A stretch of 64,000 bases of DNA from Candidatus Bathyarchaeota archaeon (GTDB lineage Archaea; Thermoproteota; Bathyarchaeia; 40CM-2-53-6; RBG-13-38-9): contig CAWECG010000003.1 of the NCBI GenBank assembly GCA_963807605.1, positions 128,001 to 192,000 on the forward strand, given 5' to 3'. The notes beneath the pieces are model-generated. The model was not told where the DNA came from. It saw only the letters and a list, made by a program, of their open reading frames with translations, and did not search any database. Within the stretch, counting starts at the first letter, position 1; every line of letters starts with the position of its first letter. Of the stretch, positions 1,193 through 62,315 are shown piece after piece. Position numbers and translations under genes: made by a program.

Positions 1193-1329
1193 ACCCTGAG
1201 CCTTCAACATATGCTGGCAGGGCACGGTTGACTAGAACCGTCGAATGACCAATGGGACCTAGTTCGAGGAACTGCAACAAATATTTGAGCGCGCGCGTAA
1301 AAGGTTCCAATATTGGATGTGAACACATA

Positions 1330-2067
1330 ATGAGTCGTTGCGACGGCAGGGCCTGGAAGTCTCCTGTTCTAGTGGAAAAATATCTTAAATGGGTTAGGAA
1401 AGCCGTACCTTTGAGTCCAGTTCAAATTGAGATGATGATGAGAGTCATATCTTCCAGGGAAGGTGGTGTCCATAGCTTTCTAGATCTCGGTTGTGGGAAT
1501 GGGATACTCGCCGCTGCGATTCTTCATTGCTTTCCAAAAGCTAAGGGCGTATTGCTTGACTTCTCTCTTCCAATGATTGAAGCCGCTCAAAGGAAGCTCA
1601 GAACATTTTCGCGCGCGTTAGAATATGTAATTGCTGATTATGGGGATCCTGGATGGATAGATTCTGTTGCCAGCTCCGTTCCATTTGATGTCGTTGTGTC
1701 AGGCTTTTCAATCCATCATCAACAGGATCGCCGCAAACAAACACTCTACAACGAGATCTACAAGGTATTGAAGCCGGGTGGAATATTTCTGAATCTTGAT
1801 CATGTCTCCTCGCCCACAAAATGGGTGAAAACCCTCTTTGACAATTACTTTATTGATTCTCTTCATTCTGTACTTGCAAAGAAGGGGTTCCGGAGGAGTC
1901 GAGAGCAGATTGTGAGTGAGTATTATGAACGCCCCGACAAAGCAGCCAACATACTTGCACCAGTCGAGGTGCAATGCCATTGGCTTCGACAGATAGGGTT
2001 TGAGGATGTGGACTGTTACTTCAAGGTGTTTGAGTTGGCTCTCTTTGGTGGAAGACGACCACTATAG
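1330..2067 (+). CDS. Class I SAM-dependent methyltransferase
   Basis: LDLGCGNG motif I, FDVVVSGFSIHH, LKPGG; ATG 1330 preferred over ORF-track 1252. Confidence 0.9.
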   Translation: MSRCDGRAWKSPVLVEKYLKWVRKAVPLSPVQIEMMMRVISSREGGVHSFLDLGCGNGILAAAILHCFPKAKGVLLDFSLPMIEAAQRKLRTFSRALEYVIADYGDPGWIDSVASSVPFDVVVSGFSIHHQQDRRKQTLYNEIYKVLKPGGIFLNLDHVSSPTKWVKTLFDNYFIDSLHSVLAKKGFRRSREQIVSEYYERPDKAANILAPVEVQCHWLRQIGFEDVDCYFKVFELALFGGRRPL

Positions 2068-2107
2068 CGCCGGCAGAAGTGGAGGGCAATACGCGACGTT
2101 ATGGTGA

Positions 2108-2473
2108 TCAACACGTAATATGAAAGAGGCCTATCACTCCACCCTTGGCTTTATTCCATACTTGGATTGCCTCAGGTGTAGGCAACAAGTCTACTTGGCA
2201 ATTCTTTCGCCGGAAGTAGTCAGCCGTTTCATCTGAAAGTCTTACCATGTCGCTTTGCCCCGTGCCTATGATTAGGCGTTCCGCCTCCCCTTCGTAGACG
2301 TATTTAGCTTCATCGAGAGAAATCGTGTGCGAGGTGCCGTAAACCGCCTTGGATAGCTTTTTCTTACGCTTTTTCGTCTTACCATCCAGCCGAATAATGA
2401 CATCATGCTCGAATACTTGCCCTTCAATGGTGATCGAGCCAAATTTTGTTTCATCGATTCGAGGCTTCATCAC
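2108..2473 (-). CDS. Mth938-like/DUF498 protein
   Basis: FGSITIEG..FEHDVII, LIIGTG, C-terminal HITC. Confidence 0.85.
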   Translation of the reverse strand: MMKPRIDETKFGSITIEGQVFEHDVIIRLDGKTKKRKKKLSKAVYGTSHTISLDEAKYVYEGEAERLIIGTGQSDMVRLSDETADYFRRKNCQVDLLPTPEAIQVWNKAKGGVIGLFHITC

Positions 2474-2625
2474 ATTCCCTTCCCTTTACACTCTACGTGC
2501 GCCTAGTTATTCATGTCCCCTCGCTGAGCGCGGTAGACACAATTACTATAGTCGCTCGCTAGCCAAGAAGGCCGATGATGACTAAATTGCGGTCAACCAT
2601 GTTGGATCATTTTTGCAGTAGTGTG

Positions 2626-3585
2626 CTATATTGAAAGAAACGTCCTTACCAAAGTAAAGGCAAGGATGCAACTCAGAAGGGTTGAGATCGTCGCTCCAGA
2701 TAAGATGACATATACTGTCCGTCTGTTTATCATAGCTATTTGCTTGGTTAAAGCCGCGCCAATAATGCTGCCCATCAACACATGAGTGATTGACATGGGT
2801 ATTCCCCATTGTGTGAGAATCCACACTAGCGTCGCGCTCACAGTCATACTTGTGAACACCCCTTGAGGACTTAAGACAATAAACTTCTCTCCGACCGACT
2901 TTGTTATTGTCTGACCGAGTAGAAAAATCCCCAGAATAGTCGATGCTGAAATTATCAGTATCACTATCGCTTGATATGACTGGGATACAAGAGGACCGTA
3001 CAGTCCATTTATGAATCCAACGTTATTCGCGCCTAATGCATAAGACACTACAAATATTCCCAGCACTACGCTGAGTTGAGTCACTAGATCGGCAATGGAG
3101 AGACTAAGTCTTGAAACAGTGACTACCACAAGTCGATATACGAACATGGTAAGAATGCCCGAGAGTAAAGGAAGCAAGAGCCATGATGCCACAACAACCA
3201 TCAGATAGTTTACTTGAAGGGCCAGATTCAACCCGATAATCGCACCTACTGATGCCCCCACAGCCAGTAGAGAAAGGCTAGAGGGAACGTGTATCATCGA
3301 GAATGCAAACAGAACCACAATGCTCGTCAAGAGGGTTGCGAGTACTATCGCCGTATTGATGGTCGAAGATGACGATTCAGAACTCATCAGACCCCCAAAC
3401 AGAGTATGACTCATCTTCGCACCTTCCATTAAGGCTCCAGCCATAACGCCCAGTCCTGCCATTATTCTGCCTCTGCTATATCCCAGGACTCCAGACCCGT
3501 AAGAAGCGGTAATGATCATCCCCGAATTATTCCAGCCCATGAGAAAGCCCAATATTGAACCGATCACAATTAAGATGTAAAACAC
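2626..3585 (-). CDS. pit: PiT-family inorganic phosphate transporter (divergent)
   Basis: Polytopic membrane protein with GWNNSG/GANNVG repeats and GIPMSITH; directly follows DUF47 gene. Confidence 0.8.
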   Translation of the reverse strand: MFYILIVIGSILGFLMGWNNSGMIITASYGSGVLGYSRGRIMAGLGVMAGALMEGAKMSHTLFGGLMSSESSSSTINTAIVLATLLTSIVVLFAFSMIHVPSSLSLLAVGASVGAIIGLNLALQVNYLMVVVASWLLLPLLSGILTMFVYRLVVVTVSRLSLSIADLVTQLSVVLGIFVVSYALGANNVGFINGLYGPLVSQSYQAIVILIISASTILGIFLLGQTITKSVGEKFIVLSPQGVFTSMTVSATLVWILTQWGIPMSITHVLMGSIIGAALTKQIAMINRRTVYVILSGATISTLLSCILAFTLVRTFLSI

Positions 3586-5177: not shown

Positions 5178-5343
5178 AAGAGAATTCCTTCTGTTCTCTT
5201 ATTTAATTTTATTCTCGACAATTTGAACGACTATTCACACGACCGCGTTTCGCCTACGTTGTTGCAGTGAACCTCTTTCTATCTCTATTGTAGATGCTCT
5301 AGCGCGCGCTGGAACGATACTGGGATAAGTCCTTGCAAGGATT

Positions 5344-5667: not shown

Positions 5668-5803
5668 GTTTCATCGTACCCCAAACTTGAAGGGATCTTT
5701 AGGAGTTATATCATTTTGCCATATGAATTCTATTGGCCATACTGAGTTCTCTAAGAGATTTCTGATAAGACTCCTACGCGCGCGTACTAATTGAGCGTGC
5801 ATT

Positions 5804-31568: not shown

Positions 31569-32119
31569 TTTCTCTGATCTTTTCGTTAATGTGTCGTCAA
31601 CTATTTTAGGCGCGCGCGCTGTCCAAACACAAATGGATTCCCCGGTTAGTTGGGTCAAAGCGCGGGCTGAGATATGAACCCACTATTTATTGGGGTTAAT
31701 CCCCTTTTATCGTCGGTTCGAGTAAGTGGGGGGTCACTTATCGTTGGGCGAAAGCTTAGGGTTTACCATCCGGAATTCGTATGACAGTTTTGGTCCACCT
31801 GTCGCGTGATACAACGCTGCAACGTCTACTTGAAGCCAAAAATTGATCCCAAGAGACAACGTCGCCTCTCGTTTGAACGTTTCAGAACTGAGCGCGTTTC
31901 AACGAGTCTCTAAGGGCCTTTCGTCCAAAAACTTCCGCATGCATTGCGAGAATGCCAAGCAATCTCTCTTCCCATTCTTTCTGAGATTCTCTAATTCGTT
32001 TCGATAGTCTTTCCTGGGTTTCTCTGTCTCGTCTAGTTATTAAATACTTAGGGCAGCTATCTCATAGCATCGAATCGATATAGAGGTACATCGGAAAAAA
32101 AGAGATAGGAGATTGAGTA

Positions 32120-32986: not shown

Positions 32987-32990
32987 CCAC

Positions 32991-34565: not shown

Positions 34566-34632
34566 TATAAATGGTCAGATACGTGCTGAATTTGCATCCA
34601 GACGTGTACAAATCAGTACAATACTAGCGCGC

Positions 34633-35737
34633 GGGGTTGTCCCGTTATTAGCGTTTTCATGTTAGGTTTGTCCAGTAGGTTATGCTTCTGGTTTTGGTGG
34701 GTTGTTTGGTGTTGTGTGAGGCTTCTATGGTGTAGAGGAGGCATAGTATGCAGTAGCTGATGTGGATGGTGATGTTTTCTAGTCCTCGTGTCTTGTGGTT
34801 GTTGAGGTTGAGGTGTTCTTTGAGTGATGCGAAGACCAACTCGATGATGGAGCGTTTATTGTAGATGTGTTTGAGGTTTTCTGGGCCGTGTGTTTTGAAG
34901 TCGCTGGTTACTCTGAGGATGTTTTGTCTTTCAGGTTTCTGGTTGGCTGGGTAGGGTATCGCGGTCTTGATTCTGTGTTTTTTAGCGGTCTCTCTGAGTC
35001 TGTTGCTGGAGTATTGACTGTCAGCGGTTAGCTGTCGGATTCTGGTTGCTGTGGTTTTAACTGTCATTTTGAGGAGTGGTATGCTCGGTTTCTTCTCGTT
35101 AGTGTTTGCTGGTGTCACTAGGAATGTTAGGGGTGTGGCTGTGTCTGTATCGACTGTTAGGTGTAGTTTGTAGCCTAACCCGTATGTGCGGTAGGCTCTT
35201 CCTACACGTGCTTGAGGGTCACTGAAGCCTGTTCTATTGTTTATGTTTCGTCTGCTGTAGGCTTTGATGAAGGTGGCGTCCATAGCAACTATTCTTGGTG
35301 TTACATAGCGCTTCTTCAGCAATTTCTTGACCTGTTTGTTTACTATGCGTCTTAGTCTTCTTGTTCCTAGTCGCTGGTTGAATCTTGAGAGTACCGTCCT
35401 ACCGTAGGCTGGCTCCTCATATCTTATGTCGCATATGTCACGTAGCCGCTCATCGATCCATAAGCGATGTTCAAGCTCACGCAGACTGTTTATTCTGAGG
35501 TAGCGTCTGGCAAGGTGTGCCTTGAAGAGTCCTAGAGGGTTACGTGGAGGTTTACCTGGACCTTCTTGATGATAGCAACTAACAACTAGACGTTCAACAA
35601 ATGATAAATCCAGATTACTCAGCAGTGACTCCAGAGTCTCGTACCCTTCTATCTGGAATCTCCTCCAAGTAGAAGGGTGCGGGGCTCAACCCTTATGGAT
35701 CTTTCCGTGTCAACTCAAAGAATATCGGGACAACCCT
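34633..35737 (-). mobile_element. IS5/IS4-superfamily insertion sequence (~1.1 kb)
   Basis: TIRs GGGTTGTCCCG(T/A)TATT at both ends; GCGCGC on both flanks. Confidence 0.9.
34657..35634 (-). CDS. DDE transposase (DUF772-like N-terminus + DDE_Tnp_1-like domain)
   Basis: DAT, GYKLH, ADSQY, YNKRSIIELVF; frame stays open upstream of 35322 (GPGKPPRNP); CTG start inferred. Confidence 0.9.
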   Translation of the reverse strand: MESLLSNLDLSFVERLVVSCYHQEGPGKPPRNPLGLFKAHLARRYLRINSLRELEHRLWIDERLRDICDIRYEEPAYGRTVLSRFNQRLGTRRLRRIVNKQVKKLLKKRYVTPRIVAMDATFIKAYSRRNINNRTGFSDPQARVGRAYRTYGLGYKLHLTVDTDTATPLTFLVTPANTNEKKPSIPLLKMTVKTTATRIRQLTADSQYSSNRLRETAKKHRIKTAIPYPANQKPERQNILRVTSDFKTHGPENLKHIYNKRSIIELVFASLKEHLNLNNHKTRGLENITIHISYCILCLLYTIEASHNTKQPTKTRSITYWTNLT

Positions 35738-35983
35738 GCGCGCTACATTATTGAAAAAAATATCGTGTATAGAAGCATGCAGATGCACCCGCAGTGGGAT
35801 ACCTTTTAGTGTTTTTACCAAAACAGTGGCTGAAATAAAAACTGGTACATGTAAATAAGCAGTTGACACAGACAACCAGTACAGGAAATAAGTATTGCAT
35901 AAACGTAAGATAAGTATGTAGCGCGCGAGAGTCAGAGGTACTTCCTCACAAGTATCTTGCTGTTTACTGTCAGTCGGCAGGTA

Positions 35984-36118: not shown

Positions 36119-36163
36119 ACTCGTTTACTTGTTTGCTTCTTCACTTCTTTTTTAGCGCGCGCG

Positions 36164-36562
36164 CAACTAGCTTGATTGTAGGAAAACACGGAATGAAACT
36201 AGAAAGAACTGCCATCTTAGATGGTTTATCGCATTTAGGGAGTTTATCCAAAGAAAATCTTTGATATTTCATATATCTCGCGGTCAACTGTCTTAAGTCT
36301 TGAAACAGCTTTTTTCAGAGGCACGGGCACAATCCTATTACCCTTTAAGCTTACCATGTAGCCGAACTTCTTCTTAGCCACAAGGTCTATCGTCGCCACC
36401 CCAAATCTTGTCCCTAGAACCCTGTCAAAGGCCGTCGGTTCACCACCCCGTTGTATGTGACCTAGAATTGTGGCTCTGGTTTCAAGCCCTGTTTTTTTCT
36501 CTATCTCTCTCGCCAAATAGCCTCCTACCCCCCCAAACCTGGCGTGGTCGAATTCGTCCATC
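36164..36562 (-). pseudogene. pfkA: Near-identical inverted duplicate of the pfkA 3' end and downstream DNA (61532-61930)
   Basis: 399 bp with 4 mismatches seen. Confidence 0.95.
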
Positions 36563-36609
36563 GTACACTGCTGGTTTCCATTTCATGTAGCTCAAACGCA
36601 TAGCGCGCG

Positions 36610-37635
36610 CTAGAGTTTCTGGAATAATTCGATGTATCTCTCAGCTATCTTCTCGGCCGTACTCTTCCTGACATACTTTTCCGCTGCTTGGATAGTTTCC
36701 GCCAACATGTCACCGCTTTCCATCACCTCAATGACGCATGCCTCGAATTCATCCGCTGTTCTGTACTTTAGGATCTCCTTATGGAAGTTCTCAAAGAATG
36801 GTGAGTCCAACGCTATGATTGGGCAGCCTGAACCAAGGCATTGATGGGCTGTGCTCGAAACGACTGCTTTCGTCTCAACCTGTCTATTGAGAATAAGAGC
36901 GTCGGAGGCGTGCAAGTAGTCGTAGAGCCTCCCTATATTCGGAGCTTCGTTCCTGATATCCACCTGAATGTTGCTGGCCACTATCCGATTTGGTGCATGG
37001 ATGCTGACTACTAGGAGTAGAATGGGGTAGCGTCTTCCCAGCGTTGAGATGCTCTGCAGCAACTCAAGGTCTTCCTTGACGTGTTGACCGAATACCAGCA
37101 GGATTTCCCTATTCAGCGGCAGACCCAGTTTCTGTCTGACCTCCATTTTATTCCCTTTTACAACAGGGTGACATGGGAAGGGTATGACATCGATTATCTC
37201 TTCCGGGAAGGCCTCCCGAAGAAACTTCCTGTATCTCTGGTCGAAGCAGACTATCGATTCCCATTGAAACTGGTAGAATGAAGGGTCGGAGGGAAGTTTA
37301 GCCTCATGTATTATGTTCACGGTTCTAGCTTTTTTTCTAATGTGGTGAAAGATCTTCTTCAACTCGTCTCTTGGAAGCATACCGAGGTTCTGAACCACGA
37401 AAATATCGTGATCAGAACTCAATATTGGTCGAGGATCAAGGTATCTACTGACTCGGAAACACCTGGTGACGTAGGTCTCATCCTCTCCCACGAATGTGGT
37501 TCCATGGAAACCTGATTGAAGATAGGAATAGAGCCGGAGATCATGCCCTTCTCTAACCCATTCTCTTCCTATCAGCTCGGCGTGAACGGAGGAACCTGCA
37601 TCAAGGTTCCAAGCGCCCATCATACCAATCTTCAA
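36610..37635 (-). CDS. GT-B fold (GT4-like) glycosyltransferase, paralog 1
   Basis: HAELIGREW, RQKLGLP, YLHASDA, LGSGCPII. Confidence 0.8.
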   Translation of the reverse strand: MKIGMMGAWNLDAGSSVHAELIGREWVREGHDLRLYSYLQSGFHGTTFVGEDETYVTRCFRVSRYLDPRPILSSDHDIFVVQNLGMLPRDELKKIFHHIRKKARTVNIIHEAKLPSDPSFYQFQWESIVCFDQRYRKFLREAFPEEIIDVIPFPCHPVVKGNKMEVRQKLGLPLNREILLVFGQHVKEDLELLQSISTLGRRYPILLLVVSIHAPNRIVASNIQVDIRNEAPNIGRLYDYLHASDALILNRQVETKAVVSSTAHQCLGSGCPIIALDSPFFENFHKEILKYRTADEFEACVIEVMESGDMLAETIQAAEKYVRKSTAEKIAERYIELFQKL

Positions 37636-40074: not shown

Positions 40075-40158
40075 TGACGTACTTATTCACTATGAACAAA
40101 ATGTCCGCTAAGTCAAATCGCTGATGTCTGCTCAAGTAGATGGCTGTGTTTCAACTTG

Positions 40159-41151: not shown

Positions 41152-41332
41152 GTGGTCGTTTTCGCCATTTTAGTCGTCAAGAAAGTCGTCACTGTCGTCG
41201 TCAAATAATAATTAGCAAAGATTTTTTTGTATTGTGCGCTGCATGATTTCTTGCGAGTAGATGGTGACGACCATGACGACGTTGACGGATTAGTTGACGG
41301 TGAAAGTGACGAAAACAACTACACTACCGAGT
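41152..41332. repeat. Long imperfect inverted repeat of iterated CGTCA/TGACG units around an AT-rich core
   Basis: Left arm 41152-41203, right arm 41275-41332. Confidence 0.75.
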
Positions 41333-41898
41333 AGCACGCGCTGATAATGGTGAGTGGAAGTTAGATATCGTCAGAAACCAAAACAGTTATTCATCAAACA
41401 ATTGGATGGCGGGTTAATAGTCACCGAAGAATGCTACTGCCATGTTAGTGTGCGTGAGGTACAGTGCAGAGCCTTATCATGGGGGGTATAGTGCATATCG
41501 CTACCGCATTTGAGGCACGTAAGCGCGCGCGTATTGCTCTGGTCCGATTCAAGGTGGATTACTCTTTCGACATGGAATTGGGCCTGACTCGCGCATCAGG
41601 GATCAAGAAAAGCCAGGTTCGGAGATCTGGTCTTTTACTATAGGACGAGTGACTTTTCAAGAAACCATGTTGCACAAAGCAAGAAAAAGTCATTCTCGTT
41701 GTCGAATTGTCCTGGTAGCGCTCGCAATACCATTCTGCATATCCAATACTATCAGAGCGGATCTGCCGTAATCAACATCTTCCCTGCCCATTAGGCTCAC
41801 ATCATACGTTTCTGGAGCACCCACAATTATTGGGTGTTTCTTTACAATGCGAATATCTTACTTGCAAGTTACTCTCCTGCCTGTTTGAGGCATGCGCA

Positions 41899-45589: not shown

Positions 45590-46009
45590 AGTAATGACCG
45601 CGTTTCATAACTGTAAACCCACGAAGGGTGTCCACAGATGACGGAGAGACATTCTCGATATTCCTAGCTAGATTCTCGTAAGTCGATCCTTTTTACGGCT
45701 TTTCCCGTTTCCTCGAAGCGCGCGCAAACTGTCATAAATTGTGGCTTAAACTCAAGGATTATGGAGAGTCGCATTCGCGTCGACTGCTATATCGGTTTGT
45801 CGCGTTTGGTTAATGAGGTTCCCACGATAGCCTTCAGTTTCCCCGATTATGTTTCCTAGTGTTTGGAGGTCTCTCTCAAGTTATTCCACTTACTTGTAGG
45901 ACATAGTATGACTAACTTGAATAGGAGAACGATATGCCACCGGTAGTAAATAAGAAGTCGAATCAAAAGACCTTAATTCTTCAAGGCAAGATACCTAACT
46001 GTAACATTC

Positions 46010-46828
46010 ATGTCAAAGATTCTTCGAGATGAGTTCTCGTCGATTTTTGAAACTGTCTTTCGAGAATACGAGAAGTATCTTTATGTTTCAAACATAATGA
46101 GCACACCGGTTTTAACTATAGATCTTGAGGCCTCCTTGGAAGATGCGGTAAGGATAATGGGCGAGCGGCACATAGGCAGCCTCGTAGTCACAGAAAAAGA
46201 TATTCCAGCGGGCATAGTGACTGAGCGAGATCTTCTCAGCAAAGTGATAGCGCAAGACAGGGATCCGGCCAAGATCAAAGTGAGGGAAGTCATGTCGGCC
46301 CGGCTAATAACTGTCAAACCTACGAATACAATCAAGCAGGCAGCTCAAAGGATGATCAAAGAGAAGGGAAGGCTTGTAGTTCTCGAAGAAGGAAAAGTTT
46401 GCGGAATAATTACCGCATCAGATCTGATTCTGTCGATACCCAAGATTCCACAGACAATGGCCAGAGTTGATGATGCTATAACGAAGAAGATTGTGGCAGT
46501 CGAACCGGAGACATCAGTTAGGGAGGCCGCCAAGTTGATGGGGAGATTGAGGATTGGTAGCGTCTTGATCAAAGACGACGGCAAGCCCAATGGAATATTC
46601 ACGGAGCGCGACCTATTGACCAAGATTCTAGCCCGTAAACTTCCACTGGAGGCAAGAATAGGAGAACTGGCATCGAGACCGCTCATAACCATCCCCTCAG
46701 GAAGCAGCATCCACAGAACCGCTGTCACGATGGCGGCGCGGCACGTCAGGAGACTCCCAGTAACCAAGAACAATGTGATAGTTGGGATAATCACAGCTAG
46801 AGACCTGGTAGAGGCCTACTCCAAGTAA
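46010..46828 (+). CDS. Tandem CBS-pair protein (4 CBS domains)
   Basis: GIVTERD / GIITASD / GIFTERD / GIITARD. Confidence 0.92.
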   Translation: MSKILRDEFSSIFETVFREYEKYLYVSNIMSTPVLTIDLEASLEDAVRIMGERHIGSLVVTEKDIPAGIVTERDLLSKVIAQDRDPAKIKVREVMSARLITVKPTNTIKQAAQRMIKEKGRLVVLEEGKVCGIITASDLILSIPKIPQTMARVDDAITKKIVAVEPETSVREAAKLMGRLRIGSVLIKDDGKPNGIFTERDLLTKILARKLPLEARIGELASRPLITIPSGSSIHRTAVTMAARHVRRLPVTKNNVIVGIITARDLVEAYSK

Positions 46829-47116
46829 CAAAATTATCAGGAGAAGCGCATGCTCGTAGTGGGATAGAACCTAGACTACTGGACTCCAAACCCAATAAGA
46901 CATTCAAGACACAGTAATGATATTCAAGAAAGGAAAGCGTTAGGATCGATGGGAACAGAGGAAGTTCCTAAAGGCTGGGCTAGGATGCTGGATTAGATCA
47001 TCGGCTGCGACAGTTCTACTGATCTTAATGGTAGTAGCAGTTGTGGTAGCAGGATATGCTGTGTATATATCCTACAAGTCACAAGCGACAGCCTCTACTC
47101 CCAAGAACGCGCGCGC

Positions 47117-47398
47117 TTTGGAGCCCCAAACAGCTTCGGTGGCGTCGCCGGAGCTTTGAAGGACTTCTTCGACAGGGCATGGAAGATGCATGACAAGATT
47201 GCTGGTAAACCTGCTGTAGCCTTCACTATGGAAAGGCCTGGAGAGACAAAGGCCCTTCAGGAGATAGAGAGATTCTTCAATTATTACAAACTTAGAAAGA
47301 TTGCGGACGGAATAGCCTTAGGTGACAAGCCCGGAGAAAAGGAATTAGATGCCTGTAAGAAGCTGGGAAAAACGTTAGCTGAATCAGCTGAGAGATAG
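47117..47398 (+). pseudogene. 5'-truncated flavodoxin/WrbA-like gene
   Basis: FGAPNSFGGVAGALKDFFDR...GKPAVAF...CKKLGKTLA, beginning right after the CG run. Confidence 0.8.
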
Positions 47399-47496
47399 GT
47401 GGAACTCTGTCTCTCAGATTTCTTACTTGTCCTCAATCATCACCTAAATGCTTGCAGCCGCTCATTATGCTATCAAGCAATCCCCGTCTTTAATTT

Positions 47497-48126
47497 TTGG
47501 TTAACGTGAATGGCATGAAATTATTTTATGTTCGTGGCTTAGAGAGAGAGGGTGCCAAGTTTTGGTTGAAGAGAGTTGGCTGGGAACCAAGTGATGTGGC
47601 AAGAGAAATTGCTCAAGAAAATGATTCCAAAAAGATAAGTTATGTTGCCGATGTTGGTGGGGCGCACGGGCGCGAGGCTCTATGGCTCGCTGAACAGGGG
47701 TTTTCCTCGATTCTAGTCGAACCAAATAATTACTCTTTAAGATCCGCGAGGAAGAGAGCGAAGAATAAGAGGCTAAATGTGTACCTGATAAACGCTACGC
47801 TACCATATTTGCCTATAAGGTCTCAGACTATAGACGTCATCGATTTCTACTGGACTCTGCACCAAATCCCAGATGAGCACAAGCTTGAGTCTTTAAAAGA
47901 AATTCAGAGAATATTGAAGCCTAACGGAATAGTGTATTCAACCAGCTTTGGATACTGGGAAGGACATAGCATGCCAAGCAGCATACATCCAATCATGAAA
48001 AAAGAAGTTTTCATATATCTCCATGTTTCTGCCGGTTTTAAACCTCGGGGTAAAATCGAAGAGAGATCTGACGATACTAGACCCTTCGAGAAGTTTTGGT
48101 ATGGAATATTTCAAAAAGATCTTTGA
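47497..48126 (+). CDS. Class I SAM-dependent methyltransferase
   Basis: DVGGAHG, WTLHQI, LKPNG. Confidence 0.8.
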   Translation: MVNVNGMKLFYVRGLEREGAKFWLKRVGWEPSDVAREIAQENDSKKISYVADVGGAHGREALWLAEQGFSSILVEPNNYSLRSARKRAKNKRLNVYLINATLPYLPIRSQTIDVIDFYWTLHQIPDEHKLESLKEIQRILKPNGIVYSTSFGYWEGHSMPSSIHPIMKKEVFIYLHVSAGFKPRGKIEERSDDTRPFEKFWYGIFQKDL

Positions 48127-48177
48127 CTCCATTGCTATCATCTTTGTGAGATAGATCGTGCGAGAGGAGGTGATTGG

Positions 48178-48468
48178 TTGTCGGAATATCCTTTGAAGAT
48201 TCTGGAGAAGCTCGATCCAGAACTTCTTAAACTTGTTGAAAATACTAGCGCAGCGCGCGCTGCTCTGCTGAAGAAGTTTAAGCTTCTGATCGCGATGGCT
48301 CTGGGTGCGTCTCAAGGAGCGGTTCAAGGTGTAAAGTCGTTATCTCAAGCGGCAATACAGGCTGGAGTTACAATAGAAGAGATCGCAGAAACGCTGAGGG
48401 TTGCCCAATATATAAGCGGAGTAGGCAGCATCTACACAGCTGCACAAGCTCTCAGAGAATTGTTCTAG
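48178..48468 (+). CDS. Carboxymuconolactone decarboxylase/AhpD-like protein
   Basis: KFKLLIAMAL...A..AGVT.EEI.ETLRVA. Confidence 0.8.
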   Translation: MSEYPLKILEKLDPELLKLVENTSAARAALLKKFKLLIAMALGASQGAVQGVKSLSQAAIQAGVTIEEIAETLRVAQYISGVGSIYTAAQALRELF

Positions 48469-48558
48469 ACTAAACGATCATGAAGACGATATTCGTGAGA
48501 GATATTTCATCACATAAGGAATCAACAATGATTAGTTTCAAACAGGGGAATTTAACCG

Positions 48559-49314
48559 ATGGATATGAACGTCAAACAGAAATTCAGCGTGCTCTGGAAA
48601 AAGTACTTTGATAATGCTGAACTCCCCATCATTTTTTATTACACCAATGAGGAGGGACATGCTGACTTTGTCAAACCGGGATCAATGTCTAGATGCATAA
48701 TTGAGGCGCTATCAGATGTGAGGGATGGAAAGGCGCTCTGTTTCGACGCCAATTCAATCGCCTGTTTTGGGGGGAAAAGATACCTCGGCTTCACTGAAGA
48801 AGTTATGCCTGACTTCGAGTATTTTCTGTCCTGTGGGATCCTTGGTAAACTTGATGGCGAACGCTATAAGAAGACACCTCAACTTGTTAAGGAGGTGATG
48901 AAACATTCAGTTTCATTCAAGGCGCCAGCTCGATTCATCGTATTCAAGAGGTGGGACATGCTCAAAGAGTCAGATGAGCCTGAGGTTGTGATCTTCTTTG
49001 CCGAACCTGACGTTGTCTCAGGCCTCTTTACTCTCGCAAATTTCGAGGAAGCAGAACCGAATGGGGTGTTTACACCATTTGGCTCTGGCTGCGCCACAAT
49101 TGTGCAGTATCCTTATCTTGAGAAAGGTTCTGATCGTCCCAGAAGTGTCATCGGAATGTTCGACGTTTCAGCGCGTCCTTTTGTTCCCGAGAAAACAATC
49201 ACATTCTCGGTGCCAATGAACAAGTTCGTCAGAATGGTTGATGATATGGACGACAGTTTTCTTATCACAGATTCATGGCAGAGAGTTCGGAAAAGAATTA
49301 GGTCGAGCGGTTAA
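48559..49314 (+). CDS. DUF169 protein
   Basis: CFGG..YLG, FLSCG...GERY, GSGC, GMFD.SAR. Confidence 0.85.
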   Translation: MDMNVKQKFSVLWKKYFDNAELPIIFYYTNEEGHADFVKPGSMSRCIIEALSDVRDGKALCFDANSIACFGGKRYLGFTEEVMPDFEYFLSCGILGKLDGERYKKTPQLVKEVMKHSVSFKAPARFIVFKRWDMLKESDEPEVVIFFAEPDVVSGLFTLANFEEAEPNGVFTPFGSGCATIVQYPYLEKGSDRPRSVIGMFDVSARPFVPEKTITFSVPMNKFVRMVDDMDDSFLITDSWQRVRKRIRSSG

Positions 49315-49385
49315 CATTTTCGTTTGGGATCTCTAGAATCCGTACTTGTTTCTGTTTATCGTGGAACGTGCTCGGTATTGATTGC

Positions 49386-49946
49386 TTAACTCCAAGCCTT
49401 CAATATCTCCTCATTACTAAGAACGGGCATCAGCTTTCCCATGTTGATCAAGGATCTGAGATGGGCATCTCTGTCGCTGGAAGAGACGGCTTCCTTGGCT
49501 ATCACAGGGAGGAAGCCCAGATTCAGAGCGTGTCTAGCGGAACTTTCTACACCCATCTCAGTCGCTATGCCTGTGAAGACAAGTGAAGACAAAGAGGCGT
49601 TCCTCACCATGTATTCAAAATTCGTCCCCACGAATATGCTGGCCGTATTCTTGTTCAACACCACCTCCCCCTCCTGTGGATAAATTTCCTTGACTATATC
49701 GCCCGGCTCGAACCTCTTTCCTTTCCACATGACCAAGCGGGCCTTTGACTCGAACTTTTCCGGGAGAGGAGTTATCTTCGTGTAGAAGATGTTGATCCCC
49801 TTTATCCTTGCGGCATCTACCAACTGGAATGTTTTTCTCAAGAAATCTTCCCTGTTAAATATCGAGGCAACTAGCGCTTCCTGCACATCCCACACTATGA
49901 GAGCAGTCCGAGTAGGTGACAAGTAATCCCTTATTTGGGACAACAT
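49386..49946 (-). CDS. Isochorismatase-like cysteine hydrolase family protein
   Basis: [29 protein letters not shown]. Confidence 0.88.
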
Positions 49947-50152
49947 GGGCAATTTCCTTAGTTTCACGTGTTGCTGGTTAAAGCTTCTCGCTTCACCAGC
50001 CTTTTGCATACTACAGACTTTTTAAGTTGCTGTCAACTTCGTGCGCGCTAGAGTCTCTCTTCACACACGACCAGGAAGAGTACGAGAACGAAGGAAATTG
50101 ATAACGAAACCGATAATAAAATTAGGCGAATGTGGACACGCTATATGTGGAT

Positions 50153-50255
50153 GGGCTCGTGGTCTAGCGGTTAGGACGCCACCCTCACAAATCGGTCAAT
50201 CAAATCTATTTGGGAACGGTGGAAGTCCCCGGTTCAAATCCGGGCGGGCCCACCA
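50153..50255 (+). tRNA. tRNA-Val(CAC) with 27-nt canonical-position intron (50190-50216) and encoded CCA
   Basis: Acceptor GGGCTCG/CGGGCCC, anticodon stem CCACC/GGTGG, GGTTCAAATCC T-arm; BHB helix CTCA/TGGG with two 3-nt bulges. Confidence 0.95.
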
Positions 50256-50505
50256 TTGAACCGACACGCTGTCTAGGGGTAGCCTTCCTGGTGAGGCCAC
50301 GCACTCAATTGAGTCCGAACGCGCGCGTAGAACTACTATAGCGCAGAACTACTACTCACTCGCTGGAACAGTATCCAGCGCAGCCAATTTCAATTCCACC
50401 GCCAACAACAGGAGCGGTGATGTGGCCGCTCTTCCATCTTTGTATGTGTTTACTCTCTTGTCAGCTTAACGGCCTCCGTCTTCGCGAATTCTTAGACATC
50501 AGCCT

Positions 50506-51597: not shown

Positions 51598-51696
51598 GCT
51601 AAGCTACCATCGAAATACATCATAGATCGCAAGTGAAAAAAGCTATTCTTTCTCCTACGCGCGCGTCTACAGCCTAAACAGTAGGATCCTTCTCAG

Positions 51697-52053
51697 TTAG
51701 AAGTTATTCCTATAGAATTGTTCAAGCTGCTTGACTTCTTCCTCTATCTTATCATGTTTAATCCAAAGCTGTTCTTTCTGTTTCCACCCTTTTAGATGCT
51801 CCACGTATCCATCAATGATTTCTCTTAAAAGCTCCGGGTTGATTTCTATCTGTCTTCCCTCATTAATCCATAGTTCCAATTTAGGAATCAAACTATGGGC
51901 TGGATTAAGTATGAAATCTTCAATTCCCTTATCTTTGAGTACCTGATCTTTGATGTACCATTGTATTGAGTGCAAGAGCGGCTCCTTGTTTTGTGCGACT
52001 TGCTCCTTTGGGATGATCAAAGGTTTCACAAATATTAGATGGACGGATGGCAT
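51697..52053 (-). CDS. Hypothetical protein
   Basis: Protein-like composition; bounded by CG runs. Confidence 0.5.
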   Translation of the reverse strand: MPSVHLIFVKPLIIPKEQVAQNKEPLLHSIQWYIKDQVLKDKGIEDFILNPAHSLIPKLELWINEGRQIEINPELLREIIDGYVEHLKGWKQKEQLWIKHDKIEEEVKQLEQFYRNNF

Positions 52054-52164
52054 TCTTGAGTCTTTCCTCCTGCATAGCCGGCGACGCGCGCGTCTTCCAA
52101 CCAATGTCCTTATCGCTAAAGTAGTATTGGCGCGCGGTGTCCCATTCCTATTACCGTGGTTAGT

Positions 52165-52506: not shown

Positions 52507-52810
52507 GACTCATAGGTTTTTCAAACATAAGAAGTTAGGACTGTCGAGTTGCGTTCTGTATCAAGGTCAGCAACTTGTTACGCACACGCATCGCGAATTA
52601 CTGTTAGCCCTTTGCTCGGAAACGTTGTAGTGATCTGTAACTTGCCTTTGAATACGCGCGCGTTCACGTATTTGCACCTAATAAGCGCGCGCTAGCTCTA
52701 TTTTTGAGAGCCTGAAGTATTAGATCTTGTTGGTGGTGCTCACCAGCTACGGATTCTTTCCCCAACATGAGGGGGAGGAATTGTGTGTGTGCTCACTGGC
52801 TGAGGAGGGA

Positions 52811-52890: not shown

Positions 52891-52991
52891 GCGCTAGGTG
52901 GCGCGCGCCAGCCCAAAATACCTATAACAAATTAGGAAGGCTCTAGGCCACAGGAAAAACTGTCTAGCATGTACTCGAAGACTGCTCCGAA

Positions 52992-53212: not shown

Positions 53213-53453
53213 CCTAGATTTTTAAGAGAGACTAACGCGCCTATGTTAAGGTCTCTTCTCTACCTTTTGTTCCTGGATGAGTATGTTTGGCAGCGCGCGC
53301 GGCATATGCGGCGGTAGCCCGGGGGAGACTGTAGTCTAGATTAGAATTCACACTCTAACCGGTACGATTCTAGGCGAACTGGCCAAGAGACAAATTTGTT
53401 TTTTGTCGGTCAAAAAAAGAGAGAAAATAGGGATGATATTCTGCCTGCTTAGT

Positions 53454-54926: not shown

Positions 54927-55082
54927 GCCTTGCGTATCTCTCTTGGTGTGCTCATGCACGACAGGAATACAGCAGCTGTACCTTACAGAGGCACATTTCG
55001 CAAGTATAGTGTGGATACGCTTCCATGTATCAATACGCAGTCAAGTAGAGCGCGCGCGCCGAAAAAGGACCTGGATAAAAAG

Positions 55083-59074: not shown

Positions 59075-59152
59075 AGCAGTAAGTTAGTTCGAGGTCTCAG
59101 ATATCTATTCGTAAGTACTTCTAAGTGATCTTATCACGCGCAAAGCGCGCGC

Positions 59153-59319: not shown

Positions 59320-59559
59320 ATGCCGAGAAGAAAGACTTCTAACACAATATCAGACGTTTTGAATTCTGCTGAGAATCTCAAGAATAGCATTGCGGCTGTT
59401 CCAGCTGACATTCAAGATGGAATCAGAGACTTGGCTCTTGCAATAATCAGCAAGCCTGTAAAGAGGCGTGGTCGTCCACCGAAGAAAAGAGTAAGACCAA
59501 AGACGAGAGTTAGGATGCCGAAGCCCAGGGCGCGCGCTAGCTGGTGGGACTTCAAGTGA
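59320..59559 (+). CDS. Small basic protein with AT-hook-like KRRGRPPK
   Basis: Helical N-terminus and Lys/Arg/Pro-rich tail; CG run at 59530 near the end. Confidence 0.6.
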   Translation: MPRRKTSNTISDVLNSAENLKNSIAAVPADIQDGIRDLALAIISKPVKRRGRPPKKRVRPKTRVRMPKPRARASWWDFK

Positions 59560-59829: not shown

Positions 59830-60804
59830 ATGCCTAGGATCTACGCAGAGTTAGGTCTGGTGAACACTAAGGAAATGTTCAGTAAAGCCTACGAAGGAGG
59901 CTACGCTATTCCAGGTTACAACTTCAATAACATGGAGCAACTGCAAGCCATCATAATTGGATGCGCAGAAACAAGCTCCCCAGGGATTCTTCAGGTGTCT
60001 AAAGGAGCTCGGACTTATACCAATCAGGCTCTACTGAGGTATATGGCGATAGGAGCCGTTAAGATGGTACGGGAAATGAATAGTCAAATTCCTATTGTTT
60101 TGCACCTAGATCACGGTGACACCTCTGAATTATGCAAGGCTTGCGTGAACAACGGTTTCTCATCTATAATGATAGACGGATCATTTTTGCCTTACGAAGA
60201 GAACGTTGCATTGACAAGGAAGGTTGTAGAATACGCGCATAACTTTGACGTGAGCGTTGAGGGCGAGCTTGGAGTTCTGGCAGGCATCGAAGAGGAAATC
60301 GGTTCCAAAGAAATCCATTACACCAAACCTGAAGAAGTCAGGGACTTCGTCGAGAGAACAGGGCTAGATAGCCTAGCAATCTCAATAGGAACCTCCCACG
60401 GAGCATACAAGTTCAAGTTGAAGCCTGGAGAACCTGCACCAACATTAAGGTTTGACATCTTAGATGAGGTAGCTAGAAGGTTACCGGGATTCCCAATAGT
60501 TCTACATGGAGCTTCCTCTATCCTCACGAAATATGTGGAGATCATAGATGACTTCGGAGGAAACTTGGAGGGTGCTGCCGGGATACCTGAGGATCAGCTC
60601 AGAAGGGCAGCTAGGTCTGCAGTTTGTAAAATAAACATTGACACCGACGGCCGATTGGTATTTACCGCCATGGTTAGAAAATATCTTGCGGAAAACCCTA
60701 AGGAGTTTGACCCAAGAAAATACTTGGGAGTAGCTCGGCAAGAACTTATCGAGGTCATAAAGCAGAAAAACATCAATGTGTTCGGTTCAGCATGGAAGGC
60801 ATGA
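59830..60804 (+). CDS. fba: Class II fructose-bisphosphate aldolase
   Basis: HLDHG, VEGELG, GTSHG, VLHGAS, KINIDT. Confidence 0.95.
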   Translation: MPRIYAELGLVNTKEMFSKAYEGGYAIPGYNFNNMEQLQAIIIGCAETSSPGILQVSKGARTYTNQALLRYMAIGAVKMVREMNSQIPIVLHLDHGDTSELCKACVNNGFSSIMIDGSFLPYEENVALTRKVVEYAHNFDVSVEGELGVLAGIEEEIGSKEIHYTKPEEVRDFVERTGLDSLAISIGTSHGAYKFKLKPGEPAPTLRFDILDEVARRLPGFPIVLHGASSILTKYVEIIDDFGGNLEGAAGIPEDQLRRAARSAVCKINIDTDGRLVFTAMVRKYLAENPKEFDPRKYLGVARQELIEVIKQKNINVFGSAWKA

Positions 60805-61850
60805 ATTTGAAGACTAATGCTGGCAAAGTCGGAATCTTGACAGGCGGAGGGGACTGCCCTGGCATGAACGCCGTTATAAGGGCCATAGTACGGAAAGGGA
60901 TACAAGACTACAACTATACAGTCATGGGCATTAGGAACGGGTGGAAGGGTCTACTCGACCAGGATTTCTGTGATTTAGACCCGAAATCAATTTCGGGAAT
61001 ACTGAATAAAGGCGGAACAATACTTGGGACATCAAGAACCAACCCCGGAAAGATCCCGAAAGGATACGAGAAAGCTCGCAAGAACCTGAACAAACTCAGT
61101 TTAACATCTCTCATAGCCATAGGGGGAGACGACACGCTAGGGGTAGCTTACAGGCTTTACGAGATGGGGTGCCCGATTGTAGGCGTCCCCAAGACCATCG
61201 ACAATGACCTATATGCCACCGACCTCACTTTTGGCTTCGACACTGCCATAAACGTCGTCATGGAAGCCCTAGACAGGCTCCACTCGACAGCTGAATCTCA
61301 TCACAGAGTCTTGGTAGTTGAAGTTATGGGCAGGAATACTGGCTGGATAGCAGTGTACGGCGGTATCGCGGGAGGAGCAGATGCAATACTAATTCCAGAG
61401 GACCCTTTCGACGTAGACGACGTCTGCTGTATTATAAGGAAGAGGCAATCTCGAGGAAAGAATTTCAGCATAGTCGTGGTTGCTGAAGGAGCCATTCCTA
61501 AACAGATAGGTAAAGCCGTCGCGGCAGATGAGATGGACGAATTCGGCCACGCCAGGTTTGGGGGGGTAGGAGGCTATTTGGCGAGAGAGATAGAGAAAAA
61601 AACAGGGCTTGAAACCAGAGCCACAATTCTAGGTCACATACAACGGGGTGGTGAACCGACGGCCTTTGACAGGGTTCTAGGGACAAGATTTGGGGTGGCG
61701 GCGATAGACCTTGTGGCTAAGAAGAAGTTCGGCTACATGGTAAGCTTAAAGGGTAATAGGATTGTGCCCGTGCCTCTGAAAAAAGCTGTTTCAAGACTTA
61801 AGACAGTTGACCGCGAGATATATGAAATATCAAAGATTTTCTTTGGATAA
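60801..61850 (+). CDS. pfkA: PfkA-family 6-phosphofructokinase (GGDD/PKTIDND signature)
   Basis: GGGDCPG, GGDDT, PKTIDND, MGR, GHIQRGG. Confidence 0.95.
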   Translation: MNLKTNAGKVGILTGGGDCPGMNAVIRAIVRKGIQDYNYTVMGIRNGWKGLLDQDFCDLDPKSISGILNKGGTILGTSRTNPGKIPKGYEKARKNLNKLSLTSLIAIGGDDTLGVAYRLYEMGCPIVGVPKTIDNDLYATDLTFGFDTAINVVMEALDRLHSTAESHHRVLVVEVMGRNTGWIAVYGGIAGGADAILIPEDPFDVDDVCCIIRKRQSRGKNFSIVVVAEGAIPKQIGKAVAADEMDEFGHARFGGVGGYLAREIEKKTGLETRATILGHIQRGGEPTAFDRVLGTRFGVAAIDLVAKKKFGYMVSLKGNRIVPVPLKKAVSRLKTVDREIYEISKIFFG

Positions 61851-62007
61851 ACTCCCTAAATGCGATAAACCATCTAAGATGGCAGTTCTTTCTAGTTTCA
61901 TTCCATGTTTTCCTACAATCAAACTAGTTGAAACATTTATACTATTGTGCTCTTCATGTGCTTTTTCTTAGTAGCAAACCCGAGTCGTTCATTTAGCAAG
62001 CGCGCGC

Positions 62008-62136
62008 TAAGAAAAGCAGAATTGAAAGCTGTTTGCGACCCAATGTATGGGACAGCTAGGGGATACTTGGATCTTATCTTGCGCAGTATCGGTTGTGAGG
62101 TCACGGTAATTCACGATGAGCTTGACCCTGACTTCG
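62008..62136 (+). pseudogene. Internal fragment of a phosphoglucomutase/phosphomannomutase
   Basis: LKAVCDPMYGTARGYL...IH...DPDF. Confidence 0.75.
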
Positions 62137-62276
62137 ATAGGCTACAGACACCAGATAAGAAGTAAGAGTGTAAATTTCTAATAGAAAAATTACCTATTTT
62201 CTGTATAATAGAAGAAAAAAGAAGAACCAATATCATCCGTAAAAAAGAAGTAAACCTAATAGAAGTTTGTAAACTA
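62137..62276 (+). repeat. AT-rich diverged repeat (partner of 35984-36118)
   Basis: Ends exactly at the CG run at 62277. Confidence 0.85.
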
Positions 62277-62315
62277 GCGCGCGCTCAGGAATGATAGAGT
62301 GTTGAACCAATGCGC

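Follow-up and report, generated by a model that had tools for sequence, protein, structure and literature searches.

A short alternating G/C palindrome present in hundreds of copies between the genes of an uncultured soil archaeon of the Bathyarchaeia

The stretch analysed here (the window, 64 kb, 46.8% GC) comes from an uncultured soil archaeon of the Bathyarchaeia whose genome carries, between its genes, hundreds of copies of (T)A-GCGCGCGC-T(A), that is (T)A(GC)4T(A), a palindrome of 10-12 bases. A maximal-run search of the window recovers 25 alternating C/G runs of 8-10 nt, with starts exactly as listed in the first-pass annotation, together with the 6-7-nt runs cited there. The gap it had reported between about 6 and 31.5 kb stands as well, no run of 8 nt or more lying between 5784 and 31610. 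The features are as follows, with the strand where one is assigned.

1289..1297, 9-nt run GCGCGCGCG; end of homology with the same-genus genome G001, which has GCGCACGCC here
1610..1617, run CGCGCGCG, genic copy within ORF 1252-2067
5302..5309, intergenic run ctaGCGCGCGCt, close to the left end of 5.3 kb (~5.04-10.33 kb) missing from genus g3
5777..5784, intergenic run taCGCGCGCGta
31610..31619, 10-nt run, ~75 nt inside the left edge of an island specific to G000
34627..34633, left half-run (taGCGCGCG) flanking the IS-A copy
34634..35736, minus strand, IS-A, IS1182/IS5-like insertion sequence of 1103 bp; terminal inverted repeats start GGGTTGTCCCG
34660-35685, IS-A transposase frame, 342 aa, DDE_Tnp_1 domain
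35738..35743, right half-run (GCGCGCta) flanking the IS-A copy
36155..36164, 10-nt run directly abutting the captured pfk fragment
36164..36562, minus strand, inverted 399-bp copy of the pfk 3' end, 99% identical to its source at 61532-61930
36603..36610, newly born run AGCGCGCGCT at the end of gene 36610-37635, creating that gene's TAG stop codon
39186..39193, intergenic run; orthologous place conserved in metagenome contig L086
41056..41064, run opening a 393-bp segment whose duplicate, at C4:12110-12506, is closed by a second run
41523..41531, intergenic run upstream of a luciferase-like monooxygenase gene
45718..45725, intergenic run between an ABC ATPase gene and a CBS gene
47108..47116, intergenic run after the CBS gene
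48253..48260, genic run within the CMD-family gene 48178-48468, whose G002 homologue lacks it
50153..50252, plus strand, tRNA gene adjoining the right edge of the island
50320..50327, run downstream of the tRNA at a distance of 68 nt; in G003 a run likewise lies downstream of the tRNA, at 26 nt
51658..51665, intergenic run upstream of dnaJ
52085..52092, run at the 5' end of ORF 51697-52104
52130..52136, 7-nt run closing a 423-bp block
52655..52662, intergenic run
52685..52692, intergenic run, 22 nt from the preceding one
52901..52908, intergenic run
53293..53301, intergenic run before the BON gene
55050..55059, 10-nt intergenic run following the Hsp20 gene; G001 contig C147 is homologous from 55218 on
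59145..59152, intergenic run upstream of a CBS-glycosyltransferase gene
59530..59537, run upstream of fba, within a weak 79-aa ORF
62000..62007, intergenic run after pfk
62277..62284, intergenic run between homologues of both flanks of the IS-A locus

The genome-wide enrichment that had been anticipated is borne out. In the 2.65-Mb genome GCGCGCGC ranks first among all octamers, with 596 both-strand counts against 28 under a dinucleotide model, an excess of ~20x, and CGCGCGCG reaches 428 against 24; from the model counts, ~0.6 runs are expected per 64 kb. The tetramers GCGC and CGCG occur at their expected frequency. Run lengths from 6 to 10 nt number 321, 127, 198, 74 and 36, and this non-monotonic distribution, peaking at 8, indicates that the octamer is the preferred unit, more than slippage noise. 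By a crude home-made gene caller, on which the split between genic and intergenic rests, 276 of the 320 runs of 8 nt or more (86%) are intergenic, compared with 21% of the genome. The base before the run is A in 79% and the one before that T in 42%, with no conservation further out. We find no palindrome extending beyond the run, no excess of direct repeats at lone runs (those without a flanking IS), which show no target duplication, and no flanks shared between runs over more than 3 nt against a matched null; the unit is free-standing, without a wider repeat, a longer palindrome or a target duplication. The earlier worry that the runs might be chimeric assembly joins is answered by independent metagenome assemblies, in which runs occupy orthologous positions (39186 in L086, and the pairs L084/L098 and L086/L115); the motif is therefore not an assembly artefact. 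A literature search found no description of it.

Runs cluster in accessory DNA, lie somewhat nearer to stop codons than to starts, are densest between convergent genes and, with their flanks, supply TAG stop codons on both strands. These properties and the strong intergenic bias would suit a selected signal, be it a terminator or insulator, a site for an abundant DNA-binding protein, or a Z-DNA former relieving supercoils. Yet the runs keep no fixed spacing to starts or stops, core regions such as 6-31.5 kb of the window do without them, close relatives lack the run at the same place, and one-mismatch copies are as frequent as perfect ones: intergenic AGCGCGCGCT occurs in 98 exact copies and 94 with one core mismatch, mostly transitions, where six shuffled words used as a control give 6-17. 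The motif decays like neutral DNA, by ordinary point mutation. Given also that it is missing from sister genera and from some species within one genus, we consider a selected function quite improbable.

How runs arise can be seen at 36603, where alignment places AGCGCGCGCT in the position of 21 ancestral nucleotides, with intact flanks on both sides. The ancestral sequence is retained in 14 of 14 aligned metagenomic relatives, including L086, which is 95.9% identical over 2.77 kb at this locus and lacks the patch. A separate run of ~10 nt is inserted 17 nt away in L085, and L098 has (GC)5 at a place where L084 has none. A run appears as a fixed ~10-nt patch that replaces or interrupts unrelated sequence, without target duplication. 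The explanation we tentatively favour, and which may quite possibly be correct, is that such a patch is left at repaired breaks and thereafter forms a fragile, recombinogenic site targeted by insertion sequences. Only three births are seen, all near one gene; a 5-nt direct repeat at one of them is suggestive of a staggered cut or a transposition-like step and counts against a repair patch. Indels free of runs also occur in the same spacer, for example a 15-nt deletion in L087/L088.

Two families of IS1182-like elements, IS-A and IS-B, with transposases of ~340 aa, are arranged as GCGCGC-IS-GCGCGC. Runs of 6-7 nt flank both sides of all 14 copies in G000 and both ends of ~30 copies of diverged subfamilies in other MAGs; in the motif-poor genomes G008, G012 and G018 both ends of the IS are still run-flanked, and in L085 a 115-nt MITE sits inside a run. 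IS1182 is the best-scoring model for these elements, at 140 bits, below its cut-off of 270. The runs are a specific landing site, entered mid-run, for one family of jumping genes, the IS1182-like elements and their miniature derivative. Elements of the IS1182 family are known to target palindromes, sometimes replacing them, without target duplication, and IS1272 inserts into palindromic sites (PMC5678879); here, unlike in the palindrome-replacing elements, the palindrome is split and partly duplicated (6+6). Hundreds of intergenic palindromes that serve as specific landing sites for insertion sequences recall REP/BIME elements. REPs, which are mobilised by RAYT transposases, have conserved heads and form imperfect palindromes of 20-40 nt, whereas the present motif is perfect, 10-12 nt long and without arm extension.

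The elements might themselves make and spread the runs, carrying or duplicating GCGCGC at their ends, re-using lone runs as targets and leaving them behind, like a solo LTR or an excision footprint, when the IS is lost by slippage between its flanking runs. Run-flanked ends in every copy, subfamily and genome examined, including the motif-poor ones, the MITE within a run, the behaviour of the family at palindromes (PMC5678879) and a patchy, burst-like spread all fit this origin, as does the fact that the 21 nt replaced at 36603 lie at the 3' end of a gene. Two or three IS copies have direct repeats of 6-8 nt outside the runs, unpredicted by a simple target model, and the 6-nt ones imply that the runs may have moved with the IS. 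The youngest IS-A copies (99.8-100% identical), however, lack any duplication beyond the runs, and their flanks are consistent with an 8-mer target of which 4 bp, GCGC, were duplicated. Lone runs lack a target duplication, and neither G000 nor 80 kb of G107 contains a partly deleted IS between runs. Moreover, the IS is present in 7 of 20 motif-rich genomes and missing from 13, a count to be read knowing that most relatives are fragmented MAGs from which IS copies are easily lost; G107 is a single contig with 601 GCGCGCGC matches and no IS. Conversely, genus g8 and many f17/f22 genomes bear the IS and few sites. The motif is independent of the IS in both directions, which counts in favour of a repair patch, and an origin from the IS appears unlikely.

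Are the runs involved in rearrangement? The ends of paralogous and orthologous homology fall on runs 4-6 times more often than at matched intergenic positions. With IS excluded and a hit defined as 3 nt or less from a run, 31 of 433 intergenic repeat ends in G000 lie at runs against 5.7 expected (at most 14 in 300 trials), 21 against 3.3 when runs of 8 nt or more are taken, and 8 of 138 against 2.0 at metagenome loci. The association with accessory DNA and breakpoints put forward in the first-pass annotation is in this respect confirmed, and island edges likewise lie near runs. The island at ~31.5-50.1 kb, an insertion relative to three other genera, starts ~75 nt before the 31610 run, and ~90 nt inward from its right edge there is a 6-nt run, at 50043; in G001, G002 and G003 the tRNA and the gene of window ~28.4-31.5 kb are 86-199 nt apart. 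The 31610 run itself is 2 nt shorter on one metagenome contig, and on another the following 50 nt are missing. Still, only ~7% of repeat ends are on runs and ~93% are elsewhere, which counts against a repair patch as well.

At single sites, an existing run stays while the DNA on one side is exchanged repeatedly. The 36603 patch is common to L098 and L084, with unrelated DNA beyond it, and another run, placed 78 nt upstream of gene 36610-37635, is joined to three different upstream contexts. The 423-bp block ending at the 52130 run has an inverted orientation with respect to its neighbour in G003, and there again its end falls on a run. Copies of genes and gene fragments have been linked to new surroundings right at runs, often with GCG/CGC microhomology; the cargo is ordinary genes and one dead pfk fragment, the copy at 36164..36562, a C-terminal piece of PFK between two runs.

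Such observations could reflect dedicated shuffling, in which a site-specific recombinase, a nuclease or a telomere-resolvase-like enzyme exchanges, inverts or captures modules as integrons do at attC. Runs do bracket modules of 1-3 genes; of the labels first given to these, Pfam supports ABC, LLM, CBS, DnaJ, BON+Hsp20, GH130, CBS-GT and fba-pfk, and the 'GT pair' and 'GIY-YIG' have no Pfam match. Among the duplications are single ordinary genes that have a run at one end or at both, one run meets three contexts, a block inverts between genera with its run kept, and a palindromic site is usable in either orientation. With integron cassettes the array shares small promoter-poor modules, a recurring palindromic separator and a place in accessory DNA. 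The attC sites measure 57-141 bp and have imperfect arms. Here, in contrast, the conserved site is 10-12 bp, shorter than known recombinase sites need, no integrase adjoins the array, modules lie on both strands, and sites arise de novo and then decay. Source copies of the duplicated segments are usually without runs, so that exchange is not run-to-run; births are patches at simple deletions with no cassette. We found no recombinase or nuclease that tracks the motif, and all five tyrosine recombinase genes of G000 lie outside the window. The motif does not look like an organised cassette-capture system, an explanation we regard as improbable. The earlier proposal of motif-guided capture, recombination or end joining holds in so far as new runs appear at repaired breaks; its dedicated capture system is unsupported, given neutral decay, the small share of repeat ends on runs and the lack of a tracking enzyme.

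An analogy had also been drawn with HIP1 (GCGATCGC) of cyanobacteria. Both are lineage-specific, G+C-rich, perfect 8-bp palindromes and the commonest word of their genomes, and HIP1 has been observed at deletion end-points. HIP1 is found within genes as well as between them, is associated with orphan methyltransferases and reportedly spreads by substitution. A cytosine methyltransferase with biased mismatch repair, or restriction-modification at GCGC, CGCG or GCGCGC, could likewise produce the palindrome, by substitution or by cutting, fill-in and religation. The site at 1289 differs from GCGCACGCC of G001 by two substitutions and nothing else, runs slip in 2-nt steps, and restriction-modification systems are as patchy and mobile as the motif. 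But the likeness to HIP1 does not extend past abundance: the runs are nearly restricted to spacers, the tetramers are not in excess, and observed births are 10-nt patches at breaks, none by substitution. C5 methyltransferase (PF00145) is found in a single motif-rich family-f1 genome, G002. G107 lacks N4/N6 methyltransferase (PF01555), whose signal in G003 is weak. This makes a methylation-driven origin very improbable.

In a comparison of 401 Bathyarchaeia genomes the distribution of the motif is patchy, even inside genera, with sister genera, and species of one genus, lacking it. Of seven enzyme families tested (IS transposase, C5 and N4 methyltransferases, Ku, reverse transcriptase, Prim-Pol and PolX), none is tracked by the motif; the last four were not found in the motif-rich genomes searched, with Ku in G000 as the sole exception. 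We found no enzyme or template able to write a fixed 10-nt patch, a further point against repair as its source.

If the runs are indeed patches left by repair, the palindrome would be written into non-coding DNA when a broken chromosome is rejoined, as filler set in an end-joining-type reaction. Being perfect, self-complementary and all G+C, a run would later make a fragile, sticky site. Any two runs would be 8-10-bp repeats of each other, direct as well as inverted, and the IS transposase may cut at them, so that rearrangements would concentrate on runs and leave the accessory DNA punctuated. Filler DNA of NHEJ and synthesis-dependent MMEJ, and vertebrate interstitial telomeric repeats, are likewise short insertions exactly at a repaired break, often with a small deletion and microhomology and no target duplication. 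Known fillers are variable in sequence or copied from nearby DNA, and telomeric filler requires telomerase; the motif, in contrast, is one fixed palindrome, which Ku, PolX, Prim-Pol and reverse transcriptase do not follow. The motif's spread is patchy and burst-like, and distant families share both its unit and its flanks, a pattern suggestive either of an agent that moves horizontally or of self-propagation from copies already present.

The word GCGCGCGC ranks first among all octamers of the window's own genome (G000; five contigs, 2.65 Mb, 47% G+C), counted 596 times on the two strands where a dinucleotide model predicts 28, which bears out the enrichment that the first-pass annotation had suspected. 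Under the same model CGCGCGCG is counted 428 times against 24 expected; the tetramers GCGC and CGCG occur at their expected frequency. Enumeration of all maximal alternating C/G runs in the window returns, start for start, the 25 runs of 8 to 10 nt that had been read by eye, as well as the shorter runs of 6 and 7 nt named with them, and no run of at least 8 nt lies between 5784 and 31610, the stretch that had been described as run-free. The impression that the runs are mostly intergenic likewise holds genome-wide, as 276 of 320 runs of at least 8 nt (86%) fall between genes called by a home-made caller (79% coding). Run lengths peak at 8 nt (6 nt, 321 runs; 7, 127; 8, 198; 9, 74; 10, 36; 11 or more, 12). 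Among the 8-mers the GC phase prevails about 3:1 over the CG phase, and the 9-mers are 8-mers extended by one chance base. Going outward, the first flanking base is A in 79% of cases and the second T in 42%, with no conservation further out, so the unit can be written (T)A(GC)4T(A). Runs cluster in portions of contigs C1, C3 and C4. They reach their highest density between convergent genes and tend to lie a little closer to stops than to starts. No fixed spacing to gene starts or stops was found, which excludes a promoter or terminator element of fixed position.

Several conventional origins were considered for the lone runs, those that do not flank an insertion sequence (IS). A larger repeat or miniature element (MITE) is rejected, since conservation stops at two flanking nucleotides and full IS copies are the sole inverted-repeat elements between runs in G000. 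A fold-back or hairpin origin is rejected too, as palindromic arms extend past the run no more than chance allows; REP/BIME elements are imperfect stem-loop palindromes of 20-40 nt, whereas here the arms are of chance length and only two flanking nucleotides are conserved. Direct repeats at lone runs show no excess over chance, and so neither transposon-like insertion nor the footprint of an excised element, which would carry the parent's terminal inverted repeats and a target-site duplication, accounts for them. Copying of other runs, flanks included, is rejected as well: against intergenic words with the same first 3 nt as a control, different runs share no more than 3 nt of flank.

How runs arise can be followed at the 3' end of gene 36610-37635, which has 34 relatives on JGI metagenome contigs. 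Fourteen aligned relatives have CTCT-TGGCGCAAAGTTTGACGACAC-ATGG, or something close to it, where the window has CTCT-AGCGCGCGCT-ATGC, and homology is back for the following ~45 nt. Given that these relatives carry the ancestral form and that homology resumes downstream, the run at 36603 is a 10-nt patch in place of 21 nt. The run creates a TAG stop and thereby shortens the protein; the product of 36610-37635, an unannotated protein of 341 aa, is ~11 residues shorter than most relatives. The ancestral form is kept in contig L086, 95.9% identical to the window across 2.77 kb, and in contigs of relatives from public runs (sharing at most 0.17 of words), one of which has the run at 31610 shortened by 2 nt and another a 50-nt skip adjoining it. 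The patch at 36603 is also present in contigs L098 and L084, in the latter with one mismatch, and is followed immediately by unrelated DNA. Contig L085 has a separate ~10-nt run inserted 17 nt beyond the patch site, and L098 has a (GC)5 with a 5-nt repeat on its flanks where L084 has nothing. Run-less indels occur in the same spacer too, for example a 15-nt deletion in L087/L088. The births observed are insertions or replacements of ~10 nt, not substitutions. On the upstream side of gene 36610-37635, a run 78 nt before the start is present in four contigs from the lineage rich in runs, in three different contexts; run-free relatives share one conserved upstream context.

Once present, the word appears to erode. 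Intergenic AGCGCGCGCT is found in 98 exact copies and 94 with one mismatch in the 8-nt core, mainly transitions; for six shuffled control words, intergenic matches with one mismatch total 6-17. It seems, then, that copies start out perfect and afterwards decay in a neutral-like manner, a series that argues against runs maintained by selection or homogenisation.

The first-pass annotation had described the runs as bracketing gene modules and had suggested mapping them against synteny breakpoints, and several rearranged segments do end on them. In three other Bathyarchaeia genomes (G001, G002 and G003) only 86-199 nt separate the gene at ~28.4-31.5 kb from the tRNA gene 50153-50252, and therefore the window's ~31.5-50.1 kb (31540-50140) is an ~18.6-kb insertion specific to G000. 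From its left edge it is ~75 nt to the 10-nt run at 31610, and its right edge has a 6-nt run (50043) ~90 nt to the inside. The adjoining tRNA gene contains an intron, and the island holds two ABC-2 transporter pairs (ATPase and permease) on opposite strands, at 32120-34202 and 43580-45589. Genus g3 is without the window's ~5.04-10.33 kb, a stretch whose left edge carries the runs 5302 and 5777. A run marks the end of a 423-bp block both in G000 (52130) and in G003; with respect to its neighbour the block is inverted. Many duplicated segments of G000 (93-99.9% identity) have one copy that ends exactly at a run and another that is run-less, and several joints make use of a GCG or CGC that the source itself contains. 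The duplicated cargo is ordinary in gene content (a CBS-domain ClC channel; a membrane protein of the VTT/DedA type; TBP together with an SSB-like protein; an FMN reductase; a VWA protein). A dead pfk fragment at 36164-36562, placed between two runs and adjoining that at 36155, is a 99% inverted copy of 61532-61930; the open frame of 105 aa at 36244-36561 holds just the last ~50 phosphofructokinase residues, copied in inverted orientation from the intact pfk at 60792-61850.

The association was quantified on intergenic ends only, with IS ends excluded and random intergenic positions as the null.

Repeat or locus ends lying within 3 nt of a run
Repeat ends of G000, runs of at least 6 nt: 31 of 433 on a run; 5.7 expected; maximum 14 in 300 trials
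Repeat ends of G000, runs of at least 8 nt: 21 of 433 on a run; 3.3 expected; maximum 9 in 300 trials
Metagenome loci, runs of at least 6 nt: 8 of 138 on a run; 2.0 expected; maximum 7 in 500 trials

The association between runs and breakpoints is real, 4-6 times over the intergenic null, but covers only ~7% of ends.

Insertion sequences enter the runs. Two families in G000, IS-A (one of its seven copies at window 34634-35736, minus strand) and IS-B (seven copies, 43% identical to IS-A at the aa level), have ~340-aa transposases that carry a DDE_Tnp_1 domain (PF01609). All 14 copies stand in the arrangement (t)A-GCGCGC-[IS]-GCGCGC-T(a). Diverged subfamilies in other Bathyarchaeia metagenome-assembled genomes (MAGs), with 30-50% identity and inverted repeats that differ, show the same: ~30 of their 35 copies have a GCGCGC(G) run on either side. 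This fits insertion at the centre of the 8-mer, the 4 bp GCGC being duplicated. None of the four youngest copies (99.8-100% identical) has a repeat beyond its runs; unexpectedly on this reading, direct repeats of 6-8 nt stand there in two or three copies (TAGACT in G008, TACAAA in L164). Insertion into palindromic targets is a trait of the IS1182 family, of which IS1272 is an example (PMC5678879), and the copies here share it. Their transposases, by contrast, remain below the family-model cut-off: the best NCBIfam match is the IS1182 model NF033551 at 140 bits against a cut-off of 270, and matches to IS5 models are likewise below theirs. A 115-nt miniature IS-B derivative with both inverted repeats lies between GCGCGC and CGCGCGC at L085:2858-2981 (Ga0315289_10014974), 78 nt upstream of a homologue of gene 36610-37635. 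Clean empty sites were not recovered: G000 has no paralogous ones, contigs of G001 break within the IS with the single usable flank mapping to a rearranged place in G000, and the IS flanks of G008 have no contiguous counterpart in five relatives; among the public-run contigs, all from relatives, no empty site turned up where there was cover. An unrelated element, IS-C (1081 bp; eight copies, at G000:C3:532249-533329 and seven other places, 99.9-100% identity, clean 8-bp target duplications), is rejected as run-targeting. One of its copies stands between two CGCGCG runs, two short runs made from one because the copy duplicated CGCGCGTA, an ordinary 8-bp target duplication of a 6-mer. Window 1-125 is the end of another repeat, of 1.38 kb (G000:C3:126743-128125), which recurs ~15 times in G000 and many times in G001 and G002. 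This repeat, presumably one more insertion sequence, shows no link to runs.

The strongest rival explanation is that the IS itself is the origin of the runs. We consider this unlikely, as the IS and the motif do not match phyletically. The IS family is present in 82 of 401 genomes of the class and in only 7 of 20 motif-rich genomes, and some IS-rich genomes have few sites. IS-B ends occur in genera g1, g2 and g8 and not in g3, g4 and g7; in the family of G000 the 10-mer is abundant in g1-g4 and g7 (16-119 per genome), absent in g5 and rare in g8. Weakening it further, G107, a single 1.98-Mb contig from a different family with ~40% G+C, has 601 matches to GCGCGCGC with the same tA...Ta flanks and no IS. 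Across the 401 genomes the distribution is patchy, with 24-131 counts in scattered genera of five families and large differences within genera (83 against 0-10 in g16; 104 against 3-10 in g117). In family f22 (e.g. G135, G132, G090) A(GC)4T is low and the reversed control word TCGCGCGCGA, the palindrome T(CG)4A, is enriched at 13-26 per genome; about half of the f22 genomes carry the IS family. Because the spread is burst-like, it suggests a mobile agent or self-propagation.

None of the seven enzyme families compared with the motif follows it; methyltransferases and NHEJ polymerases had been proposed for such a search by the first-pass annotation. PF00145, Ku, RVT_1, PF01555, Prim-Pol, the PolX palm and the IS transposase all fail to track it, and G107 is without RVT_1, PF01555, Prim-Pol and PolX palm. 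Among motif-rich genomes of the window's family f1 the cytosine methyltransferase PF00145 is found in G002 only; PF01555 is absent from G107 and weak in G003. A Ku gene lies at G000:C1:590767-591306, yet Ku was found in no other motif-rich f1 genome, G000 being the only one of its family in which it was detected, and Ku is present in all four searched genomes of the motif-poor family f2; a filler of Ku-dependent end joining would call for Ku, with LigD, in the genomes that show it. The likeness to cyanobacterial HIP1 is therefore partial. Like HIP1, GCGCGCGC is an octamer palindrome and the most over-represented word of its genome; HIP1, however, is tied to a cognate cytosine methyltransferase and is reported to spread by substitution through coding and non-coding DNA, whereas here neither methyltransferase family searched for tracks the word, the bias is intergenic and births are patch-like. 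Integrons have an adjacent integrase gene and cassettes in one orientation, each with an attC of 57-141 bp; here modules occur in either orientation, the site measures 10-12 bp, and none of the five tyrosine recombinase genes (PF00589) of G000 falls within C3:128001-192000. A selected signal, a HIP1-like methylation process and an integron-like system do not fit.

How, then, would one word come to stand in so many spacers? Our preferred reading, held tentatively and with somewhat less than even confidence, is that a fixed patch would be written into spacers at repaired breaks; the patch would later decay, slip, and break or recombine anew, and IS1182-like elements would target it. A more specific version is possible though doubtful: some Bathyarchaeia lineages would seal breaks with a fixed self-complementary 10-bp A(GC)4T patch and others with variants such as T(CG)4A, specified by a horizontally moving enzyme or small template, and the scars would become interchangeable recombination points genome-wide. 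In the literature searched we found no account of a (GC)n joint motif in archaea, where end joining is poorly understood. If a specific repair activity writes the patch, an end-joining filler of fixed sequence would be known for the first time other than in telomere healing, and a new archaeal DNA-repair route would come to light. Read more modestly, hundreds of identical palindromes acting at once as fragile sites, microhomology and IS landing pads would explain how the flexible genome is reshuffled in a very abundant soil and sediment lineage. The motif also serves as a practical marker in MAGs of accessory DNA, recent joints and truncated genes, such as the gene that lost 11 codons to the run at 36603 and the dead pfk fragment.

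A further family of short repeats is present in the window: ~70-90-nt elements at 34427-34517, 39344-39439 and 62353-62438, on the minus strand, resemble the 3' end of a tRNA (T-arm, acceptor stem, CCA). ARAGORN calls one of them a tRNA of unknown type, and many copies are found in G001, G002 and G007.
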